Assembly (NCBI GenBank): GCA_964352335.1
Contig: CAYGRO010000002.1
Span: 77,138 to 141,137 of the forward strand
Source of the DNA: an uncultured Gammaproteobacteria bacterium
GTDB lineage: Bacteria; Patescibacteriota; Patescibacteriia; VMEV01; CAYQCH01
Direction: 5' to 3'
Length of the DNA stretch: 64,000 nt
The translations under genes were made by a program, and so were the position numbers. Position 1 is the first letter of the stretch. Each line of letters begins with the position of its first letter. Under the pieces are notes generated by a model. The model had not been told where the DNA came from and did no database searches. It worked only from the letters and a program-made list of their open reading frames with translations. Shown one piece after another: positions 1-52,481 of this stretch.

Positions 1-360
1 AAGAGGAATCAACCAATCCGCAAGTAAAAAAACAAAGCCAGATAGAAGAAATAAAGAAATCAATAATAAAAATAAAACCGATTCAGCCAATTTCCAGGCC
101 TCTTCTTTATTTCGTTTTAAATATTCCGAAAAGACTGGAATAAATCCAGCAGAAAGTGCACCTAAAACAAGTAAACTAAAAACAAAATCAGGAATTCTAA
201 ATGCAGCATAATAAATATCTAATGATTCCCCCGCTCCAAATGTTGTCGCAAGTAAACGATCTCTATATACCCCAAGTAACCGACTAAATAAACCAGCAAA
301 ACCTAAAACAACTGCACCTGAGGCAATTGATCGAGAAGCTTGATTAAAAAGTCTATGCAT
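1..360 (-). CDS. murJ: Lipid II flippase MurJ (MviN), N-terminal part; gene continues beyond window start
   Basis: Minus-strand translation from the ATG at 358-360 gives MHRLFNQASRSIASGAVVLGFAGLFSRLLGVYRDRLLATTFGAGESLDIYYAAFRIPDFVFSLLVLGALSAGFIPVF. The RxxLGxxRDxLxAxxFGAGxxxDAFxxAFRIPN pattern is diagnostic of MurJ N-termini. Confidence 0.6.
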   Translation of the reverse strand, partial: MHRLFNQASRSIASGAVVLGFAGLFSRLLGVYRDRLLATTFGAGESLDIYYAAFRIPDFVFSLLVLGALSAGFIPVFSEYLKRNKEEAWKLAESVLFLLLISLFLLSGFVFLLADWLIPL

Positions 361-416: not shown

Positions 417-1577
417 TTATCTTTTTTGTAATCGATAAATAATATCTTCTTTATCATCGCTAATCAAAATTGATTCGTCTGATAAAACAAGAATTCCAGC
501 AGGTCTGCCAATAGAATTACCATCTTCTAAAAGGAAACCAGATAAAAGAGATTCACGAACCTGAAAATCGCTTTCAGAAGTTAAACGTATAACCTCATAC
601 CCCGATGGTTCTTTTCTATTCCATGAACCATGTAAAGCAATAATGGCGTCTCCCTCCAAAAAGTCAATCCCTAATGGTGCTTCATGGGCAATGAAATCAT
701 AAAAACTAGGTTCTGCAGATAAACACTCAGTTGATTGATTATATTCTGGGTCAATTATATTTTTCCCATAACAATAAGGAAAACCATAATCTTTTCCTTC
801 TTTGACAAGATTTAATTCATCTGGTGGCAAGTCATCTCCTAACCAATCTCTTCCCATTTCAGTAGCAAATAATTGTCCTTCATCATTCCAGTTAAAAAAC
901 ACAGCATTTCTCAAACCCGTTGCATAGGTCACAAGCTCTTGAGTAGAAAGTGTGTATCTAAGAATAGTTGTTCTTCGTTCATCATCTTCAATACAAATAT
1001 TACAGCTACTTCCAACGGAAATATATAATTCGTCCGTATCAGGAGCGAAAGCGATTGTTCTTGTCCAATGTCTCCCATCTGCAGGCAAATCTAAAATTGT
1101 CCGCGGATTAGTCGCCTTCTGATTTTTATAATCGTATTCAATTACTTGACCAGTTTCCGCAATATACAATTTTGCATCTTTAATAGCCAAACCATGAGGC
1201 CTATTCAAATTATCGACGAGCACTTCTTGTTCCCCTTTTTCATTCAAAAGTGAAACTCTTGATTGACTTGGCTCACTTACAAGTATGGCACCACTTTCAT
1301 CTTCTATCATGACACGAGGATTAATAATAGCGTCAGAATAAATAGATAACCGAAAGTCTGGATGAACAATAAAGGGCCCATTATCTACATCATTTTCATT
1401 ATCTTGGTTTTTCAGATTTTGTATAAATGTTGAAGTATCATTGCCAGAATCGCCTATTACAGGTTTCAGCGCATTCCAATAGGGTTTTAGATAAACCCCC
1501 GTAATAATAGCAATAATAGTAATAATAAGGGCTGTTCCCAACCAAATCGATTTATTTTTCAACATAATAGTAGACAT
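417..1577 (-). CDS. PQQ-dependent sugar dehydrogenase-like beta-propeller protein (soluble aldose/sorbosone dehydrogenase family), N-terminal membrane anchor
   Basis: 386 aa ORF with an N-terminal TM helix. Propeller-like repeats and motifs (NRPHGLA, GRHWTRTIAFAPD, LYISVGSSCN, EMGRDWLGDD) resemble the YliI/SGDH family. Confidence 0.55.
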   Translation of the reverse strand: MSTIMLKNKSIWLGTALIITIIAIITGVYLKPYWNALKPVIGDSGNDTSTFIQNLKNQDNENDVDNGPFIVHPDFRLSIYSDAIINPRVMIEDESGAILVSEPSQSRVSLLNEKGEQEVLVDNLNRPHGLAIKDAKLYIAETGQVIEYDYKNQKATNPRTILDLPADGRHWTRTIAFAPDTDELYISVGSSCNICIEDDERRTTILRYTLSTQELVTYATGLRNAVFFNWNDEGQLFATEMGRDWLGDDLPPDELNLVKEGKDYGFPYCYGKNIIDPEYNQSTECLSAEPSFYDFIAHEAPLGIDFLEGDAIIALHGSWNRKEPSGYEVIRLTSESDFQVRESLLSGFLLEDGNSIGRPAGILVLSDESILISDDKEDIIYRLQKR

Positions 1578-1606
1578 TTGACAATAAGATACTTCTATTG
1601 TACTAT
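1578..1606 (+). promoter_or_regulatory. sigma70-like promoter TTGACA-17-TACTAT
   Basis: TTGACA at 1578-1583, 17-nt spacer, TACTAT at 1601-1606. No ORF follows; the downstream region is GC-enriched and hairpin-rich. Confidence 0.45.
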
Positions 1607-1612
1607 AGATCA

Positions 1613-2085
1613 GTCATACAGAGATATCCACCGTAGGATGTCAATGTACCAACTATGAGGCTGGGTGCTCAGTAGTGGCTCGTAGTCGCTGCTGAGTATA
1701 TAACCCGTCCGAGTCTCGTCGATAATACGAGATACCTACGACGAAATCCTTTCGCGTTAACGGTATGAGTTGATCACTGCTCGATTCAACTCCTCGGACG
1801 GGTCACTACCAGTATCAAACATGGACTTTGTGTCGCTTCGGCTTCCGGAGGGCAAGACCACAGGCTTAAGCAAAAAGTCGCTCGCGTAAGTGAGGGACCA
1901 TGTTCGTAGAACAGCCAAACTCGGTCAAGTCGTCTAGTTCCGCAGTTGCGGCACAAGTCCCCCTTCTTTCCCCCGAGGGGTCATTCGGTAGCTCCCCCCT
2001 TGCTACTGGATGGCCCCTCTTCTTTTTTCAAAATCTTCAATATCACAAAAATCGCTGTCAGATATTTCTGACAGCGATTTTAAAA
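1613..2085 (+). ncRNA. Candidate structured ncRNA 1 (~470 nt), class unknown
   Basis: Bounded by the promoter at 1578-1606 and a strong intrinsic terminator (14-bp perfect stem 2048-2061/2067-2080 followed by TTTTAAAA). GC is enriched relative to flanking genes. Nested helices include 1704-1713 pairing 1793-1802, enclosing hairpins 1714-1732 and 1767-1792, and a UUCG-loop hairpin at 1835-1842. No credible ORF. Confidence 0.4.
2048..2085. terminator. Bidirectional intrinsic terminator
   Basis: Perfect inverted repeat aaatcgctgtcaga/tctgacagcgattt with a 4-nt loop. T-runs follow it on both strands. Confidence 0.6.
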
Positions 2086-2176
2086 CCACCTGATTATTTG
2101 TCAATAAAAATAGTGATAAATAGTGGTTAGATTTTTTGTCAAAAAAAGTTTTCAACATTTTACCCCAAATAACCTC

Positions 2177-2205
2177 TTGACCTAGCTCACTGCCACTGAT
2201 ATTAT
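2177..2205 (+). promoter_or_regulatory. sigma70-like promoter TTGACC-17-TATTAT
   Basis: TTGACC at 2177-2182, 17-nt spacer, TATTAT at 2200-2205. Confidence 0.4.
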
Positions 2206-2211
2206 TCATAG

Positions 2212-3125
2212 CACCAATACAGAGGACTTGTTCTCTGAAGCGGAAAAAATCCTCCCTTGAAATACAGGAAGGTATGTCAGAATCCTTGGTTACTAAGCTG
2301 AGCAATCAGTAAAAGTGAATAAGGAATACTGGGCATTTGCACTTCACCCGCAAGGTGAAATGATCGTTCAAACTCAAGTATGCTCGTTATGCGAGAGCAG
2401 AGGCAAGGCATTGCCTATTCCCTGCTCACGTAGTAGGGATATACTTGAACAAGAACATCAATTCAGTCTCATCGTCTTGGTTCACTCCTCGGCGCTAACA
2501 ACTGAAATACAAATGACTCACCAATTCAGGAAAACTTATTTCGCTCTCGTAGTGAAAATCGTGATCAAGCCTAAGATAAGCAAACTAACTCTTCTGAGCT
2601 AGCGAGCAAATCGATACCGCAAGACCACGAATAGACCAAAGGAACAAGCCAACACTTGCACCTAGATCTAAAAGTCATCTTTCTGAAATACTGATATGGA
2701 CTCGGAGCAGATCAACTTATACGCCCCTAAACAAGGCGGAGTGAACCGAATCACTAGTTGATCTAAGTAAGGCCTTAAAACCTGAATCATTGCTCCACTC
2801 GCGACCCCTTGCTGAATGAACAGCAATCTGGCAACAGAAAAAGGGAAACGAAAAAACGCGCATCCTGAAAACGTACGCATACGGATGTGAGAGCCGACTA
2901 TTCCAAGGAAGCTCAAGGTCCTCGACGACAAATCACCAGCAGATGGTAACATCGTCAAACGTAGAGACTCTGCAATGTGTGACTGCTAGCAGTCATCTCG
3001 ATTCAAACCGAGTACGAAGCTTTTCGGAGCTCTGTAACAAACGGTCAATACGAGGGCATCCATGAAGCCTGGCACGAGAAACGTTCTTCGGAACTAACTT
3101 GTGCCAGGCTTCTCCCATTTCAGAC
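2212..3125 (+). ncRNA. Candidate structured ncRNA 2 (~900 nt), class unknown (ORF-less group II intron-like or other large ncRNA not excluded)
   Basis: GC-enriched and ORF-free; only short overlapping ORFs on both strands. Many stable hairpins: a GCAA-type loop at 2343-2359; a 12-bp stem 3064-3075/3101-3112 enclosing a UUCG hairpin at 3083-3094; catcc/ggatg and ttgctg/cagcaa hairpins around 2800-2910. Promoter at 2177-2205. The terminal hairpin is followed by a T-rich tract. Confidence 0.35.
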
Positions 3126-3132
3126 CTGTTTT

Positions 3133-4614
3133 TCAAAAAATACTTAAATCCGTTAATAACTCTAAAGGTGCTTTATCATCCGTAAATAATTTCACAGAAG
3201 TATCTGTGATTTTTTTGATCGAAAAATAAGGTGGGAATGGCATTTCAGAATCTTCATAGATTTGATTAAGATCATCAAAATCAATTTCAGTATCGCTCGC
3301 AAAAATGAGTGAATTAGATCCTATTTCTGTATGTAATAAATACACATTTGCAAACACCTTATTGGTCGTTGCAATTAATCTCTCTGCTAATTCTGTTTCA
3401 TGTCCTAATGCGATATTGAATGCAAGTATCCCCTCTGGATTCAATCTTGATTGTGCTAATTGAAAAAACTCAATAGTTGCCATATGAAAAGGGATTTGAA
3501 ACTCATTGGCATATGCATCAACCAAAAGTAAATCATAGGTTGAATCTGTGCTTGCTAAAAATTGCCGTCCATCTGCAATAACCGGATTCACATTAAAAAG
3601 ATCTTCATCAAAATAGTTTTTCACTAAATCAAATACAGCTGGATCAATATCTACCCCATCTATTTCGCTTACAAATTGAGCAGCAGGTGTTTCTCTCCAT
3701 ATCCTAGGAATAGTCCCACCAGCAAAGCCTAGTACTGCAGTATTCAGGTTTTCACCACCATGAATAAATGGCAAAATAGCTAGCCAGTCCCAATACCTCC
3801 CCGTCCATGGAGTTCCTTTTTGATGCACAGACTGGACTCCTAAACCTTCATTAAAGATAATACTAAATTTTTCTTCATCCTCAATTAAACGAATTGTTTG
3901 ATACGGTGTCTCTTTTCCAAAAACAATCCCAGGCCCTTTCAATGGATTTGGTTTAAGTCCAAAACCAATAAGAATTAGTAGAAGAATAAGAATAACTTTT
4001 TTCCATCTATTAGATTTTTCTACAACTATTGAGAGCAACATCACAATAAGAGCAACAGAAATAAATGTAATATGAGTCCCAATAATAGGATAAAAAACAA
4101 TTGGCGTTAAAATAGAGCCAATAATACTACCAATAGTCGAAATTGCGAACACTTTCCCAGATATTGTTCCAGGATGATGCCCATCTCTGCCTAAGAGCTC
4201 GATGATAAGCGGACTAACAAAACCATAAAAGATACAAGCTGGCATTAAAACTATAAGCGATGCAGAAAATATCAGAAAAAAAGCTCCCCCAGATGGAATA
4301 TTCCCTCTATAGATTACAGGCAATATATTCCCTATAACATAAACAAAGTATGGGATGAGAAATGTACAAATCGATGCGAAAAAAAATGCATTCGAAAGCT
4401 CTTTTTTAATATCTTCTCTTTTTGAGATAGTCGCTCCAATAAAATACCCTATTGCCAATGCTGCTAAAGTAACACTAATGGCGCTTGTCCAAATAAAAAC
4501 TGAGGCGCCAAAAAACGGAGTCAGTAACCGTGCACCTGCTATTTCTACGATAAGAACACAAGCACCACTTATTCCAGCAATAAAGTAAAAGAATTTGAGC
4601 GAGTTATTTTTCAT
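3133..4614 (-). CDS. Fused polytopic membrane domain / spermidine synthase-like (polyamine aminopropyltransferase fold) protein
   Basis: 493 aa. The N-terminal ~200 aa contain multiple TM helices. The C-terminal part has the spermidine synthase-like signature (LLLVDAYANEFQIPFHMATIEFFQLAQSRLNPEGILAFN). Confidence 0.55.
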   Translation of the reverse strand: MKNNSLKFFYFIAGISGACVLIVEIAGARLLTPFFGASVFIWTSAISVTLAALAIGYFIGATISKREDIKKELSNAFFFASICTFLIPYFVYVIGNILPVIYRGNIPSGGAFFLIFSASLIVLMPACIFYGFVSPLIIELLGRDGHHPGTISGKVFAISTIGSIIGSILTPIVFYPIIGTHITFISVALIVMLLSIVVEKSNRWKKVILILLLILIGFGLKPNPLKGPGIVFGKETPYQTIRLIEDEEKFSIIFNEGLGVQSVHQKGTPWTGRYWDWLAILPFIHGGENLNTAVLGFAGGTIPRIWRETPAAQFVSEIDGVDIDPAVFDLVKNYFDEDLFNVNPVIADGRQFLASTDSTYDLLLVDAYANEFQIPFHMATIEFFQLAQSRLNPEGILAFNIALGHETELAERLIATTNKVFANVYLLHTEIGSNSLIFASDTEIDFDDLNQIYEDSEMPFPPYFSIKKITDTSVKLFTDDKAPLELLTDLSIF

Positions 4615-4881: not shown

Positions 4882-5117
4882 TATAGCATAAAGCTAGCAA
4901 AACAGACTTCAAGAAAGGAAGTGAAGCTTGCTTATCAACCCATTCGATTATCATTTTAGTTTCGACCAAAAAAAAGGTCGTAAACATTTAACCAACAAAA
5001 TACGCGTCAGAGGCTATCCGCTTCGTGCACGTACCCGAGTGGACCAGTTCCAACGGTATATCACGGGCCATAAGCTCGGTCTCTGAGGAACCAAGAGACT
5101 TAGGAGGGAATCCGCCA

Positions 5118-5151
5118 TGTCGTTCACAAACGACATGGCGTTTTTCATTCA
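5118..5151 (+). terminator. Intrinsic terminator on plus strand (possible 3' end of a small RNA)
   Basis: Perfect 11-bp inverted repeat gccatgtcgtt/aacgacatggc followed by GTTTTTC. No plus-strand CDS lies upstream; the upstream ~130 nt are GC-rich. Confidence 0.4.
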
Positions 5152-5205
5152 CAAATGAAAGCAGAGTAGGTTCAGCGCTGGGCTTACTACTACTCTGCGG
5201 GCGAC

Positions 5206-6081
5206 TTACGCCAGAACGGACTTGTGCATCAAGCTGGTTTTCATTTGCTTGAGGATTTTGGCGAGGTTTTCGGCAGTGCCGATCTCCACCCTCTCCTTTG
5301 ACTTGACCGCCGAAAGATCAAGCATTCTGTCAGAAGCATTACCAGGAGCAACACCAATGACCATCTTTCCCGTCTGCTCGCGAATGGTTTTGAGGAAGGT
5401 CACATCGCTCTCTGAGTCACCGAAGACATAGGAGCGCCTCCAGTCAATGGAAGTACCTCGTGAGTCAGCCCACTTAGTGAGCCGACGAAAGGCCCACTCG
5501 GCTGCAAGGTGCTTGCCGTAGCCCTCAGGAGAGATATCAGCAAGATTGCCTTCTTCCCCATGACTCACTTGAACCCGATGGCCACGGTTGAAGGTCTCAA
5601 CCGCCTCGCGAACCCTCTGAGAGAATTCAGGTGCGGCCTTCCCTGAACTAATCCCTGGGTTGACCAGGATGATGTTCACAACCTGATTCCCGCTTTCGAA
5701 TAGCGTGAGATCGTAGCGGCGAAGATGCTGCAGCAATTGCAGGCGATCCACATTGCACCAGAACGAGTCGTGGTACTGTTTATGGACGGTATGGCTATAG
5801 GACTTGAGGTCCACACAGACCGCCCCGGACTCGGCAAAATGCCAATTCCACGCAGAGCGACCGAGGACCGTATGCGCGATGTCATGAACTCGCCCCGCGG
5901 GCTTATTCGTAACGATCACCACGACAAAGTTGTGCTTGTCGTGCAATTCATCGAGCATCAGCCCGATCTGGTTCATGGACGCACGGTCCAATACCCGAGG
6001 CTTTGGCCAAGGGATAGGCTCGATCAACGTGCGATCGAGATCCATGAAAATGACTTTAACTGGTTTCATTTCACTCTTCAC
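5206..6081 (-). CDS. HAD-superfamily hydrolase, subfamily IIB (Cof-like sugar-phosphate phosphatase)
   Basis: Motif I FMDLDRTL, motif IV GDSESD...GVAPGNASD. GC content is distinctly higher than in neighbouring genes; the opposite-strand shadow ORFs are typical of a GC-rich insert. Confidence 0.55.
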   Translation of the reverse strand: MKSEMKPVKVIFMDLDRTLIEPIPWPKPRVLDRASMNQIGLMLDELHDKHNFVVVIVTNKPAGRVHDIAHTVLGRSAWNWHFAESGAVCVDLKSYSHTVHKQYHDSFWCNVDRLQLLQHLRRYDLTLFESGNQVVNIILVNPGISSGKAAPEFSQRVREAVETFNRGHRVQVSHGEEGNLADISPEGYGKHLAAEWAFRRLTKWADSRGTSIDWRRSYVFGDSESDVTFLKTIREQTGKMVIGVAPGNASDRMLDLSAVKSKERVEIGTAENLAKILKQMKTSLMHKSVLA

Positions 6082-6170
6082 GACGATCCCCTCAGGATGT
6101 AGGTATTATAACCGGAAAGCACCGGTCATCATTTTTGACGAGAATCAAAATGATGACAAGTCCTTTATCG

Positions 6171-9701: not shown

Positions 9702-10182
9702 CCTGCCTATCGGCAGGTAAAGATTCGCCGTCACCACAAAAAGGGTTAGGATCGATGAGCTTCTCATCCCTTATCGACAGATCTATTTTTAGACAAAGTA
9801 AAACGCTCATCAGATTGATGAACGCTTTACTTGGTTCCCAGACAGGGATTCGAACCCCGATTCCATGGACCAAAACCATGTGTCCTACCTTTAGACGATC
9901 TGGGAATAGATAATCTTCTTTTTTTCTTCGCGTCCGATACCGGACTTTAAATATAGTTCACGAGCACGCGCTTCATCTACAGTAGCAAACTCTTCTGTAT
10001 GAACTAGTTTTAAAGGACGGCATCCTTTTGTTGACCTCACTTTGCCATATGTATGATTTTTAAATCGTTTTTCTATATCGGATGTGCTACCAACATATGA
10101 CCAATTAGCTCTATTTTGTGATACTAAATATAGATAAAAGCCATAACAATTGTTAATGGACCCCTGCCTGCCGGCAGGCAGG
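9702..10182 (-). mobile_element. Candidate inserted element interrupting a second tRNA-Gln copy; carries an intact tRNA-Gln and a GIY-YIG ORF
   Basis: Bounded by hairpin-forming imperfect inverted termini: CCTGCCTGCCGGCAGGCAGG (10163-10182) and CCTGCCTATCGGCAGG (9702-9717). Flanked by the 5' (10183-10237) and 3' (9687-9701) fragments of a tRNA-Gln. No integrase or transposase is seen. Confidence 0.3.
9832..9905 (-). tRNA. tRNA-Gln (anticodon UUG), CCA encoded
   Basis: Manual fold: acceptor TCCCAGA/TCTGGGA (U1-A72), D-arm GTCT-AAAGGTA-GGAC, anticodon arm CATGG-TTTTGGT-CCATG (anticodon TTG), variable loop GAAT, T-arm CGGGG-TTCGAAT-CCCTG, discriminator A, CCA. Confidence 0.85.
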
Positions 10183-10190
10183 AAAACCAT
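9891..10190 (-). CDS. Small GIY-YIG nuclease family protein (YhbQ/YazA/UPF0213-like, ~99 aa)
   Basis: Motifs GFYLYLV...WSYVGSTSDIEKRFKNH...KLVHTEEF...EARARELYLK match the GIY-YIG catalytic domain. The N-terminal 11 codons (start codon included) are encoded by the tRNA 5' fragment plus palindrome; the 3' end overlaps the intact tRNA-Gln by 15 nt. Confidence 0.55.
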   Translation of the reverse strand: MVFLPAGRQGSINNCYGFYLYLVSQNRANWSYVGSTSDIEKRFKNHTYGKVRSTKGCRPLKLVHTEEFATVDEARARELYLKSGIGREEKKKIIYSQIV

Positions 10191-28301: not shown

Positions 28302-28758
28302 GGCTCAGGTTGGCAATAAGCCGAATTTTGTCCCCATCTTCGCATGAAGCTTAGATGGGTGATGATTATCTATCTAGCCCTGCAATTGCTTGCAGGATCG
28401 AGCGCACTACCAAATTTGCACTTGCACCAGGTAGGGTTTACCACCAATACCGCTCACACGGCATGGACAGATGTAGCAGTCAACGCATTAGCTTTTAGGG
28501 CTAAAAAGATGTTAAAGACATCATCTGACTTTTCACGTTTCAATTTGCGCAGCAAATCAATCCCGAGCTTTGCCGAGGGATACCCTTCGACAAGCTCAGG
28601 GTAGCTTTGCTACGCAAACCTAGTATAGTCTCTGTGGCACTGGCCCTAGGTTACCCTTGGTTCCATTTCGGAACTACCTTTTTTATGGTGTTCGGACTTT
28701 CCTCCTGTTTTGAGCTAAAAATAGCAAAAAAACAGGCAATCATCTAGCTAACCTGAGA
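28302..28758 (-). ncRNA. rnpB: RNase P RNA (rnpB), bacterial type A-like
   Basis: The minus-strand reading contains P4 5' strand GGAGGAAAGTCCGAACACC (cf. AGGAAAGTCCGGGCUCC) and 3' P4 GGGGACAAAATTCGGCTTATTGCC (cf. ACAGAACCCGGCUUA). GTAAACCCTACCTGGTGCAAG matches the GGUAAACNCCACCYGGAGCAAG region. P1 pairing CTCAGGTT/AACCTGAG; P3 hairpin CCTGTTTT...AAAACAGG. Confidence 0.8.
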
Positions 28759-44223: not shown

Positions 44224-44321
44224 AAATTACCTGAATTATAGCATGCGCCAAAAGAGCACACCTATTGACAAATGAACAATAATATGATATAGTTGAAAAA
44301 GCTAAAAAAGGGGCAAAACAG

Positions 44322-44603
44322 ATGAATAGCTTAGTTATTGAGTTTATAAGGACGGTCAAGCAAGATGAGAAACTGCCTCAGTTCGTGAGAGTGGGATTCC
44401 CAGCGATCGTTCCACTCTTCTTCATTGTCGCAGGATTCCTGCTGGGCATTGGAGAAGCATTCTACCTTCAACAGATGTGGGGATTCACTCCCCCGTTTCT
44501 GCCGACGATCCTCATCGGGATCGCCGGAGCGTGCGCCTTGGCTGAAGCCATACTGCGCTTGACGGACGTCGTCATTCGCGCGAAGCACCAACAATCGAAC
44601 TGA
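44322..44603 (+). CDS. Small (93 aa) two-TM membrane protein in a GC-rich (~55% GC) island
   Basis: Good RBS (AAGGGG 7 nt upstream of the ATG) and a shared hairpin terminator downstream (aaaagccccatgaggggcttt at ~44670-44695). The strong GC contrast with flanks suggests horizontal acquisition. Confidence 0.45.
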   Translation: MNSLVIEFIRTVKQDEKLPQFVRVGFPAIVPLFFIVAGFLLGIGEAFYLQQMWGFTPPFLPTILIGIAGACALAEAILRLTDVVIRAKHQQSN

Positions 44604-50627: not shown

Positions 50628-52481
50628 TTACTCAATAACAGCCTTAATTCGCCTCACACCTGCAGAACTCGCTTCTTCTTTTTTAATTTTGAAGCTACCA
50701 AGTTCTTTAGTGTTTTTTACATGAGGGCCACCGCAAATTTCGTAGGAGAAATCTCCCATTTTGTAGACTTTTACATTATTCCCGTATTTATCTTCAAAAA
50801 GTCCAATAGCCCCATTCTTACGAGCCTCTTCGATATCTAATTCTTCAAAGCTCACTTCTAATTCACGATTAATTTGTTCATTCACAATAGCTTCTACTTG
50901 TTGCTTTTCTTCTGGTGTCAATTTTCTGTCGAAATTAAAATCAAATCGTAAACGTTCCGGTGTAATATTACTTCCCTTTTGTTCAACCTCTTCTCCTAAA
51001 ACATTCTTTAAAGCTTGGTGAAGTAAATGGGTTGCGGTATGTAAACGAGTAGAAGCTTCTGAATGATCGGCTAAACCACCAGCAAATTTTTGTTTTGCCC
51101 CTTCTCGCGAAAGATTTTGATGTTGTTCCATTTCTACAGTAAAAGCAGGCATATCTACTTCTAGTCCTTTTTCAGCAGCAAGCTCTTGGGTCATTTCTAC
51201 CGGGAAACCATAAGTAGCAAATAATTGAAAAGCTTGTGGACCTGTAATAGCAGCTTGATGTTCTAGTTTCTCAAATTCTTTAAGTCCTTTTTGTAGGGTT
51301 TTTTTGAATTTTTCTTCTTCATTTGTAACAGCTTCTAAAACAAACCCCTTCTTTGTTTCTAACTCTGGATAAGCTTGTTTGTATTGCTCAATAAATCCTT
51401 CAATAATTTCACCACAGAATTTTTCTTCAATTTCTAGTACATGACCAAATCGAACAGCACGACGAATTAAACGACGTGTAAAGTAACCTTGATCTTTATT
51501 ACTTGGTACAGCTCCATCTGCAATCAAGAATGTTGCTGCTCGTAAATGATCCAGTATCACACGATAAGCAGATGTAATGTCCTTTGAATCCGTATAGCTT
51601 TTCCCTGAAACAGCTTGTATTGCTTCTCGAGCTTTATCAAAAATTGTAAGTAAGAAAACATCTGCAACATCTTGATTGGCAGCCGCTAAACGTTCTACCC
51701 CACCACCAAAATCAATGTTTTTATTTGGCAAAGTGTTAAACCCATCATTCGTTTTAACATATTGCATGAATACATTATTCCCAATTTCAAAGAAGCGACC
51801 ACAATCGCAAGCGACATGACAGGGCTGATCATTCCATTCTGAATTTTCATGGAATTGTAAATCAGCTCCAAAATCCCAAAACATTTCTGAATCTGGACCA
51901 CCAGGTTCTCCTACTGGCATTTTTTCTGGGACACCAACTCGAGACCACCAGTTTTCTGATTCTGGATAGTAAAAAATTTTACCATCTTGCATTCCGTCTC
52001 GTTCAGCAAAATCTACAATACCTGCTTCAATACCAACACTCGCGAATTGTTTTTTCCACAATTCTGCTGCTTCTGTATCTTTTTCTAAACCTAATCCCTC
52101 ATTTCCACGATAGACAGAGATATAAAGTCGACTGGGATCTAAATTGATTTCGTTTACTAAAAAATCAAAAATCCATTCAATTTGTTCATTTTTAAAATAA
52201 TCACCTAAAGACCAATTCCCAAGCATTTCAAAGAATGTTGTATGACGGTTGTCTCCAATTTCTTCGATATCACCAGAACGAAAACATTTTTGAGAATCTG
52301 TTAAGCGAGTCCCTTCTGGGTGTGATTCTCCTAAGAGATAAGGGACCATTGGTTGCATTCCAGACCCTGTGAATAAAGTTGTTGGGTCATTTTCTGGGAT
52401 TAACGAAGCTGAAGCAAGCCGTTTATGCCCCTTTTGTTCAAAATAAGATAGATATTTTTCTCTAATTTCATTGATATTCAT
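50628..52481 (-). CDS. alaS: Alanine--tRNA ligase, short form (catalytic + tRNA-binding + editing HxxxH, lacking the C-terminal C-Ala/DHHA1 region)
   Basis: N-terminal class II AlaRS motifs (FTGSGMQPMVPYLLG...RHTTFFEMLGNWSLGDYFK) and editing-site HTATHLLHQAL; 617 aa versus ~870 in typical bacteria. Confidence 0.8.
   Translation of the reverse strand: MNINEIREKYLSYFEQKGHKRLASASLIPENDPTTLFTGSGMQPMVPYLLGESHPEGTRLTDSQKCFRSGDIEEIGDNRHTTFFEMLGNWSLGDYFKNEQIEWIFDFLVNEINLDPSRLYISVYRGNEGLGLEKDTEAAELWKKQFASVGIEAGIVDFAERDGMQDGKIFYYPESENWWSRVGVPEKMPVGEPGGPDSEMFWDFGADLQFHENSEWNDQPCHVACDCGRFFEIGNNVFMQYVKTNDGFNTLPNKNIDFGGGVERLAAANQDVADVFLLTIFDKAREAIQAVSGKSYTDSKDITSAYRVILDHLRAATFLIADGAVPSNKDQGYFTRRLIRRAVRFGHVLEIEEKFCGEIIEGFIEQYKQAYPELETKKGFVLEAVTNEEEKFKKTLQKGLKEFEKLEHQAAITGPQAFQLFATYGFPVEMTQELAAEKGLEVDMPAFTVEMEQHQNLSREGAKQKFAGGLADHSEASTRLHTATHLLHQALKNVLGEEVEQKGSNITPERLRFDFNFDRKLTPEEKQQVEAIVNEQINRELEVSFEELDIEEARKNGAIGLFEDKYGNNVKVYKMGDFSYEICGGPHVKNTKELGSFKIKKEEASSAGVRRIKAVIE

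Follow-up and report, generated by a model that had tools for sequence, protein, structure and literature searches.

Patescibacterial genomes, at about 1 Mb, have little DNA to spare, which raises the question of why one of them keeps some 1.55 kb of gene-free DNA between two of its genes. The interval lies at positions 1578-3132 of a 64-kb stretch of contig CAYGRO010000002.1, the whole of which is referred to here as the window. An earlier reading of the letters alone (the original prediction) had described it as lacking a credible open reading frame (ORF), as richer in GC than its coding flanks and as holding two promoter-to-terminator units for large structured noncoding RNAs (ncRNAs), possibly of an undescribed class. 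The features it listed were all found where it had placed them, and conserved transcription signals, folding z-scores and compensatory changes bear out its two units. We consider it likely that the interval consists of two separate plus-strand genes, units 1 and 2, for stable, highly structured ncRNAs belonging to no described class. The surrounding locus is arranged as follows:

Positions 1-360, minus strand: MurJ gene, running off the left end of the window.
Positions 417-1577, minus strand: GSDH-like (glucose/sorbosone dehydrogenase family) gene, ATG at 1577.
Positions 1578-3132: gene-free interval between two minus-strand genes.
Positions 3133-4614, minus strand: fused membrane/spermidine-synthase-like gene, stop codon at 3133-3135.

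The interval is non-coding. The ORFs within it are mechanical only, none longer than 100 amino acids, and a Pfam search of these returned no matches. Comparison with the homologous locus L027 showed substitutions spread evenly over the three phases in each 300-nucleotide (nt) segment (p = 0.55-0.93), whereas the same test applied as a control to the GSDH gene gave 112/63/191 substitutions at codon positions 1/2/3 (p = 1.4e-15); the conserved protein frame that the original prediction had proposed looking for was thus not found between the two sequences. Identity to L027 is 73.6 % across the insert (1561 aligned positions) and 68.1 % in the flanking GSDH gene, and this combination of identity above that of a neighbouring gene with a lack of phase bias indicates a stronger constraint which is not of the reading-frame type. 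GC content is 0.45-0.555 over 1601-3100 against 0.31-0.39 in the flanks, confirming the predicted enrichment. At 0.518 for unit 1 and 0.451 for unit 2 it matches that of the proven RNA genes of the window (RNase P RNA 0.458, tRNA 0.514) and not that of the ORFs (0.36), and the composition is therefore RNA-like. Unit 2 is also A-rich on the plus strand (AT skew up to +0.33), as expected of an RNA with many unpaired adenosines. The RNase P RNA (28302-28755) and the sole tRNA, a tRNA-Gln (9832-9905), lie elsewhere in the window, as originally observed, and share the minus strand with nearly all other ORFs of at least 120 amino acids.

Homologous loci were found via contigs encoding relatives of both flanking proteins. 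Those with the same gene order and a gene-free gap are:

L027, JGI: gap of 1595 nt.
L002, Logan (L003-L008 are the same species): gap of 1578 nt.
L029, Logan: gap of 1452 nt.
L024, Logan: gap of 1115 nt.

The truncated contig L032 additionally carries TTGACA-17-TACTAT pointing away from its GSDH gene, and downstream of this promoter extend at least 550 nt of sequence rich in hairpins, with UUCG and GNRA loops. Searches with nhmmer from the window aligned the full 1.58 kb with L027 (810 bits), window position 1967 to the end with L002 (E = 3e-53), and the promoter, 5′ region and an internal domain of unit 2 termed motif B with L029 (E = 7e-13), while nhmmer detected no sequence-level similarity between the window and L024. 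The features L024 has in common with the others are a TTGACC-N14-TGATA promoter, the order of the 5′ elements and a terminal hairpin with a UUCUCAUU tail; its unit 1 is about 300 nt and its unit 2 about 700 nt long. L029 is without unit 1 and has a unit 2 of about 1200 nt. The unit 1 analogue of L002 is very stable (z = -8.6), as are those of L024 and L032, all located at the same site and preceded by the same type of promoter.

The helices of both units are maintained by compensatory changes, bearing out the covariation that the original prediction had proposed to examine. An RNAalifold consensus for unit 2, computed from the window, L027 and L002, contains 37 helices and 212 pairs; standard pairs make up 90.5 % of cells, and 67 of the 212 pairs have changed on both sides as compared to 27.3 ± 3.9 when 3′ partners were shuffled (none of 500 shuffles reached 67) and 3-13 when partners were slid by 1-3 columns. 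Helices 8, 9 and 22-27 are 100 % paired with 2-3 compensatory pairs each. The unit 1 consensus from the window and L027 contains 125 pairs, all of which form in both sequences, and 24 of these are double-changed (12.2 ± 2.5 in shuffled and 1-3 in slid controls). MAFFT alignments including L024 or L029 were poor outside motif B and were left out of the counts. Sequence conservation in unit 2 falls in junctions and internal loops, whereas the stems covary.

A decayed coding remnant, or horizontally acquired GC-rich DNA devoid of RNA function, could be envisaged for an insert that is lineage-specific and has a GC-rich coding island (5000-6100) nearby. It would, however, have to account for the absence of codon periodicity and of protein-family matches, for conservation exceeding that of the adjacent gene, for the compensatory changes and conserved promoters and terminators, and for the insert having been retained even where the identity of the flanking proteins is only 54-77 %. 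This explanation is largely refuted and we accord it next to no credence.

Unit 1 (~1613-2029) would lead from a sigma-70 type promoter through a four-way junction and a long domain to a C-rich stretch and a first terminator, T1, followed by a second hairpin, T2. Its features are:

Positions 1578-1606, plus strand: unit 1 promoter; -35 TTGACA (1578-1583), 17-nt spacer, -10 TACTAT (1601-1606).
Positions 1613-2029, plus strand: predicted unit 1 RNA, about 420 nt, its 5′ end placed from the promoter and its 3′ end from T1.
Positions 1703-1803, plus strand: four-way junction; 11-bp closing stem 1703-1713/1793-1803 around three hairpins.
Positions 1823-1960, plus strand: second domain; long irregular stem with a UUCG-capped branch (helices 10-15).
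Positions 1959-2029, plus strand: C-rich 3′ region and terminator T1.

The promoter agrees with the consensus at 10 of 12 positions, stands back-to-back with the start of the minus-strand GSDH-like gene and recurs as TTGACA-17-TAYTRT at the orthologous position in L027, L002 and L032. A minus-strand promoter match at 1630-1602 has a -10-like TATAGT overlapping the unit 1 -10; this site could serve the GSDH-like gene, the divergent promoters then sharing one AT-rich core. On the plus strand the unit 1 RNA is predicted to fold with a minimum free energy (MFE) of -198.6 kcal/mol, which corresponds to z = -12.2 relative to shuffled sequence. Its 5′ part is variable and includes a 16-bp hairpin. 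Downstream of this the helix 1704-1713/1793-1802, recognised in the original prediction, is present; it encloses three hairpins and not the two described, making a four-way junction. A covariance model of this junction (R3) scored 121 bits in the window and 124 bits in L027 and gave no match in L002, L024, L029 or L032. The second domain is the best-conserved part of unit 1 between the window and L027.

At the 3′ end a single-stranded CCCCCUUCUUUCCCCC (1959-1974) lies 5′ of T1, an 18-bp stem (1977-1992/2002-2017) with loop UCCCCCCUU (1993-2001) and the U-tract UCUUCUUUUUUC (2018-2029). UCCCCC-type motifs are also found in L027 and L002, and within unit 1 nhmmer could align only the stretch from the C-rich region through T1 to T2 with L002, beginning at window position 1967. 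Unit 1 most likely ends at T1, the stronger terminator, which the original prediction had missed when it placed the end at the 2048-2085 hairpin; that hairpin is real and corresponds to T2. The spacer between the units contains:

Positions 2047-2085, both strands: T2 palindromic hairpin, AAAAA-TCGCTGTCAGA-TATT-TCTGACAGCGA-TTTT-AAAA.
Positions 2132-2157, plus strand: 26-nt upstream box, TTTTTTGTCAAAAAAAGTTTTCAACA, ending 19 nt upstream of the unit 2 -35.
Positions 2177-2205, plus strand: unit 2 promoter; -35 TTGACC, 17-nt spacer, extended -10 TGATATTAT (with TG; TATTAT).

The arms of T2 (2048-2062/2067-2081) are perfect over 15 nt and contain TGTCA...TGACA. The hairpin is kept in L027 with four compensatory changes (helix 18), and equivalents occur in L002 and in L029, although the latter is without unit 1. 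T2 may act as a second bidirectional terminator, as in strongly expressed RNA operons, as a protein-binding palindrome, or both; it has the half-site TTGTCAAAA in common with the upstream box. The box itself is identical in the window and L002, differs by 1-3 changes in L027 and L029 and keeps a fixed distance to the -35. It occurs once in the 64-kb window even when three mismatches are allowed (0 expected) and was not found in viral contigs, and we regard it as a putative UP-element-like or operator-like site. Box and unit 2 promoter together are the most conserved DNA of the whole region: L027, L002, L029 and L024 each have TTGACC-N14-TGATA at the corresponding site, so that all five lineages including the window share it, and the box is found in four. 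Raw promoter matches in the region number 10 against 5.1 ± 2.4 expected, which is not significant alone, and the support for the two near-consensus promoters of the original prediction comes from their conservation at the orthologous loci and not from the match count. The extended -10 element combined with a conserved box points to strong or regulated transcription of unit 2. A promoter of similar style, TTGACA-N14-TGATATAGT, precedes a rare plus-strand gene of the window (44265-44603) encoding a predicted membrane protein of 93 amino acids (44322-44603).

The two units are tandem and co-oriented in four of the five lineages, an arrangement which could also reflect one operon, with unit 1 acting as a cis leader or attenuator of unit 2 or with both RNAs processed from one precursor. 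In an attenuator, the C-rich stretch and the 3′ arm of T1 would be rivals for the GGGG run, which would control read-through into unit 2; a CCCC-GA-GGGG alternative pairing with the T1 5′ arm is possible in the window and L002, and it is precisely this C-rich-T1-T2 stretch of unit 1 that can be aligned with L002. Unit 2 nevertheless has a promoter and box of its own which exceed the rest of the region in conservation, two consecutive terminators lie between the units, and L029, which has no unit 1, retains unit 2 together with its box and promoter. A single operon therefore appears unlikely as compared to two separate genes.

Unit 2 (~2212-3130), under its extended -10 promoter with the box upstream, would comprise about 35 helices in several domains and close with a terminal hairpin:

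Positions 2212-3134, plus strand: predicted unit 2 RNA, about 920 nt.
Positions 2220-2237, plus strand: P1 hairpin, read from the sequences.
Positions 2360-2461, plus strand: motif B, a three-hairpin domain with conserved GAGGYAAGG and UAUUCCC.
Positions 2798-2917, plus strand: central helices including conserved GAMAACGUACGC, 100 % paired in three sequences (helices 22-27).
Positions 2913-3060, plus strand: multi-branched 3′ domain with conserved blocks CAAGGUCC, GGUAANAUCGUCNAAC and GGGCAUCC.
Positions 3064-3134, plus strand: terminal hairpin with 15-nt arms (3064-3078/3098-3112, 93 % complementary) and pyrimidine tail UCUCCCAUUUCAGACCUGUUUUUC.

Homologues of unit 2 measure about 930 nt in L027, 960 nt in L002, 1200 nt in L029 and about 700 nt in L024. 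P1 is followed by a conserved A-rich linker CGGAAAAAAUCC, a P2 hairpin with a AUGAAAUA-type loop and a conserved GUAUGUCA; this order of 5′ elements is common to the five lineages with differing stem sequences, as judged by eye without statistics. A covariance model of motif B (R1) scored 121 bits in the window, 119 in L027, 92 in L002 and, with compensatory changes, 30.9 in L029 (E = 6e-6); it gave no match in L024, nor did a second copy emerge in the window. The middle part following motif B is variable. Nowhere in the region are substitutions fewer than in the 3′ domain (36-45 per 300 nt relative to L027), whose model (R2) scored 165, 172 and 118 bits in the window, L027 and L002 with no match in L029 or L024. 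The stem at 3064-3112 closes the unit as originally described, enclosing an inner hairpin GUUC-UUCG-GAAC (3083-3094), and the GNRA- and UUCG-type loops of the original prediction were likewise located. Among homologues the terminal stem covaries (AGCCUGGCAC / GAGCCGGGUAGG), and a hairpin followed by a UUCUCYYWUU tail occurs in five lineages, in L029 and L024 as a canonical terminator. The tail abuts the stop codon of the convergent gene, and 3064-3134 is a probable intrinsic terminator of unit 2. An 11-nt GAAA-tetraloop receptor (CCUAAG and UAUGG both occur in unit 2) was considered by eye and rejected as the flanks do not pair. Intermolecular pairing between units 1 and 2 examined with duplexfold yielded only meaningless whole-length duplexes.

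A number of points weigh against two plus-strand RNA genes. Covariation is drawn from three alignable sequences for unit 2, four for motif B and two for unit 1, and since these sequences also served to predict the structures, the contrast with the controls is inflated. Models R2 and R3 reach no further than the sequences used to build them and R1 extends to L029 only. For unit 2 of L024 and the unit 1 bodies of L002, L024 and L032, which both nhmmer and the covariance models miss, homology is suggested by position, promoter and architecture only. An exact scan of JGI metagenomes with the 3′-end motif GGGCATCCATGA...TCTCCCATT returned 13 matches, all of them chance matches within coding DNA where the blocks enclose no hairpin; the scan also missed the homologue L027, a JGI contig, and is too strict to show rarity. 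Expression, transcript ends and abundance are predicted from sequence, and nothing in the analysis indicates a specific biochemical function. Almost every other gene, rnpB and the tRNA among them, is met head-on by both units, an unusual orientation for highly expressed genes. Lastly, the z-scores of unit 2 (-6.95 on the plus and -6.74 on the minus strand, relative to shuffled sequence) do not separate the strands by thermodynamics alone, and its ratio of G-U to A-C is only 54 to 40.

Other indications of strand are more decisive. Unit 1 is assigned to the plus strand by its z-scores (-12.2 versus -3.8), its alifold energy (-155.6 versus -129.9), the excess of G-U over A-C at its helix ends (21 versus 7) and a U-tract terminator present on that strand. 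Unit 2 is placed there by the conservation of its promoter and box, by a consensus fold of -173.2 with a covariation bonus of 10.1 (-165.8 and 0.7 on the minus strand), by the pyrimidine/U tail that its terminal hairpin has on the plus strand only, and by the count of GNRA/UUCG tetraloops closed by at least 3 bp in five homologues (7, 9, 7, 7 and 2 on the plus strand, 32 in total; 1, 1, 2, 2 and 1 on the minus strand, 7 in total; the window itself contributes 7 and 1). Were the RNA instead transcribed from the minus strand, unit 2 would represent the 3′ untranslated region or read-through of the spermidine-synthase-like gene, unit 1 the 5′ leader of GSDH-MurJ, or both. All neighbouring genes do lie on that strand and were probably once co-transcribed, unit 2 folds with a lower MFE there and with similar z, and the U-run of the 2048-2085 hairpin is slightly better. 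The TTGACA-16-TAAAAT promoter match at 2104-2077 on the minus strand is, however, not kept in L027 and was put down to chance, the hairpin at 3064-3112 lacks a U-run in that direction, and the preference of unit 1 for the plus strand, the unit 2 tetraloops and the conservation of promoter, box and terminators on the plus strand all oppose it. We judge a minus-strand RNA to be very improbable and continue with both units on the plus strand.

How the units came to be located here is indicated by more distant relatives. The flanking genes are overlapping, adjacent or 383 nt apart in L009, L010, L030 and the P0007 contig, and from their being together there it follows that the RNA region is an insertion in one sub-lineage, since kept. 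The pair would have been inserted between formerly adjacent genes in the ancestor of one Parcubacteria-type Patescibacteria sub-lineage, its known distribution being five to six related uncultured Patescibacteria lineages. The best named homologues of the LepA and GSDH proteins belong to Parcubacteria, Uhrbacteria, Buchananbacteria, Gottesmanbacteria, Nomurabacteria and 'Patescibacteria group' metagenome-assembled genomes (MAGs), affiliations which identify the host as a member of the Patescibacteria (candidate phyla radiation). A single-protein peptide pattern found no close relatives in GTDB genomes, and an alignment-based pattern identified two loci, L030 (CAZDCG010000001.1) and L031 (CAYHTI010000083.1), both without the insert. 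These encode the same string of spermidine-synthase-like protein, GSDH and MurJ at 45-48 % identity and are titled 'uncultured Gammaproteobacteria bacterium', although they are probably mislabelled Patescibacteria MAGs.

No direct repeats, no second copy in the window or the homologous loci and no adjacent reverse transcriptase, transposase or cas gene were found, and searches of viral contigs, phage genomes and plasmids (blastn for the phage and plasmid collections) returned no matches. A mobile element, a miniature inverted-repeat transposable element or a phage- or plasmid-borne RNA was rejected on the basis of the single copy and the lack of such matches.

A third promoter-to-terminator unit was observed in the neighbourhood, on the same strand as units 1 and 2, at L002:13886-14760 and L027:5099-5758. 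It lies between MurJ and a pseudouridine-synthase gene, which corresponds to about 1.3 kb left of window position 1, beyond MurJ, and has a TTGACA-N14-TGATAT promoter, a length of about 790 nt in L002 (z = -3.5), a strong terminal hairpin and blocks conserved between L002 and L027 such as GCGGTACCAAGTAGGCTGCAAAATTACAGCCTGGTCATCAGT and GAGCTGTATAAGTACCTTAA. An Rfam search of it gave no match, and it is possibly another unclassified large RNA.

Do the units belong to an RNA family that is already known? We searched Rfam 15 (4227 families) at the gathering score and at permissive E-values. Nothing was found at the gathering score in the region or in L002, L024, L027 and L029, and at E ≤ 10 there were only scattered sub-threshold matches, mostly on terminators (rli38, SurC, 6C, RsaE), whereas the same scan easily finds the RNase P RNA and tRNA of this genome. 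The undescribed class of the original prediction is consistent with this null result in the window and four homologous loci. Its more specific proposals were not supported. Likeness to OLE, GOLLD or ROOL found no match at gathering score or E ≤ 10, nor did HEARO, raiA, tmRNA (transfer-messenger RNA) or 6S; membership of OLE, GOLLD, ROOL, HEARO or raiA was rejected with none listed even at E ≤ 10 or E ≤ 5. An ORF-less group II-like ribozyme is not supported in view of the lack of an Rfam match (Intron_gpII or group-II-D1D4), of domain V, of an intron ORF and of exons: the terminal hairpin is 49 nt long with an inner UUCG hairpin in place of a domain V of about 34 nt with AGC triad, GNRA loop and 2-nt bulge, the region has no ORF with a Pfam match, and both genes bordering it are complete and abut in relatives. 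Rejected likewise were tmRNA, 6S, signal recognition particle (SRP) RNA and RNase P RNA (no Rfam match, and ARAGORN finds no tmRNA), 6C RNA (24.3 bits, E = 1.8 at 1960-2018, gathering score 47) and a riboswitch or other cis leader, as both units are on the plus strand and the next genes in that direction are convergent on the minus strand. Our search of the literature on large ncRNAs in Patescibacteria found nothing relevant.

A known class could still escape Rfam if highly diverged or rearranged, candidates being an ORF-less or fragmented group I or II intron, a permuted ribozyme, and an atypical tmRNA, 6S or SRP RNA. Covariance models are less sensitive on divergent lineages, the terminal stem begins with AGCC, superficially like the start of domain V, and Patescibacteria are known to have unusual introns and divergent RNAs (PMC13011429). 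Yet five homologous sequences show no such family at E ≤ 10 in a scan that readily finds RNase P RNA and tRNA, ARAGORN reports no tmRNA, exons, an intron-encoded protein and a 34-nt domain V are lacking next to a terminal hairpin of 49 nt, and the sizes of the units do not fit 6S, SRP RNA or tmRNA, each unit having a promoter and terminator of its own. There is thus little to recommend a diverged known class over an undescribed one.

What such RNAs might do is suggested by their architecture. Both would be abundant and act in trans via their fold, whether as ribozymes, scaffolds or ribonucleoprotein components, probably together with protein partners; antisense or cis regulation appears less likely. 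Trans action is suggested by the absence of a co-oriented downstream gene, by conserved junctions and loops set among covarying stems, by frequent GNRA loops and by lineage-variable peripheral modules arranged around a conserved 5′ region, motif B and 3′ hairpin. GNRA tetraloops often make tertiary contacts. Unit 1 changes far more rapidly than unit 2, and L029 can dispense with it; its fast-evolving, very stable helices combined with conserved unpaired C-rich motifs by the terminator suggest an accessory RNA with a protein-binding or regulatory role.

Bacterial RNAs of more than ~400 nt with complex conserved folds are rare, those that are understood being central machines (rRNA, RNase P RNA, tmRNA and group I and II introns), and orphans such as OLE, ROOL, GOLLD and raiA form unusual membrane-associated or cage-like assemblies. 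We propose, as a tentative possibility, that unit 2 founds a hitherto undescribed class of multi-domain RNAs, 0.7-1.2 kb in size and specific to a Parcubacteria-type lineage of Patescibacteria, and is a ribozyme or the core or scaffold of a ribonucleoprotein, clustered with unit 1 and a third RNA of ~0.8 kb, all against the direction of the genes. If true, symbionts with reduced genomes would invest several kb in RNA machinery without counterpart in known bacteria. A conserved 1.5-kb non-coding insert in a small genome, constrained above a neighbouring enzyme gene, implies a function worth its cost.

Elsewhere in the window, which has a GC content of 36 %, the GC-rich island at 5000-6100 (0.50-0.575) is coding: it coincides with a HAD-like hydrolase ORF (5206-6081, minus strand) together with the preceding 324-nt spacer (GC 0.457), and its acquisition may have been recent. 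Between 9400 and 10385, where large ORFs are absent for 986 nt, lie the tRNA-Gln and a 99-amino-acid ORF (9891-10190, minus strand) that looks like a GIY-YIG nuclease, and the orthologous locus of L002 also has a GIY-YIG gene next to a tRNA. The alanine-tRNA ligase (50628-52481, minus strand) is of a short 617-amino-acid form (NCBIfam PRK01584 type) without the long C-terminal domain.

Of the known systems, RNase P RNA resembles the units in its conserved core, covarying helices, peripheral modules that are gained and lost, raised GC content and own promoter and terminator. The genuine one is, however, present at 28302-28755 (167.9 bits), and the units have none of its conserved regions. This RNase P RNA (class A, minus strand) is 454 nt long in comparison to a model of 367 positions, indicating lineage-specific insertions. 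The 3′ end of unit 1, with unpaired UCCCCC-type motifs beside a terminator hairpin, recalls 6C and RsaE/RoxS, which use C-rich loops by the terminator to pair with G-rich mRNA sites. It differs in being 4-5 times longer, and scores reach only 24.3 bits for 6C and 18.1 bits for RsaE (on the unit 2 terminator) against gathering scores of 47 and 79. By a rough count using mechanical starts, Shine-Dalgarno-like motifs (GGAG, GAGG, AGGA) are found upstream of 3 of the 50 longest ORFs, which makes a masking of Shine-Dalgarno sites by the C-rich motifs of unit 1 unlikely and suggests largely Shine-Dalgarno-independent initiation in this host. ORF-less group II introns share with the units their size range, multi-domain fold, A-rich unpaired regions and many GNRA loops, whereas the units lack domain V, exons and a reverse transcriptase and have their own promoters and terminators at a fixed single-copy site.

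The closest likeness in kind is to the large RNAs OLE, ROOL and GOLLD, a class on which cryo-electron microscopy work is available (PMC12286853). In common with these the units are stand-alone RNAs (0.6-0.8 kb or more in the case of unit 2), have many helices with conserved nucleotides in junctions and loops, were found as GC-rich or conserved intergenic regions, have no adjacent cis target and have a biochemical role that is at most partly known. They differ in matching none of the corresponding covariance models, in their Patescibacteria host and very narrow known distribution, in lacking the oap gene link of OLE or the tRNA and prophage context of ROOL and GOLLD, and in that unit 2 comes together with another, fast-evolving structured RNA and is preceded by a conserved box dedicated to it. 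The category, that of orphan large structured bacterial RNAs, is therefore a known one while the units match none of its families, and they bring to it as new features the tandem pair, the dedicated upstream box, the Patescibacteria host and the insertion into a former operon.

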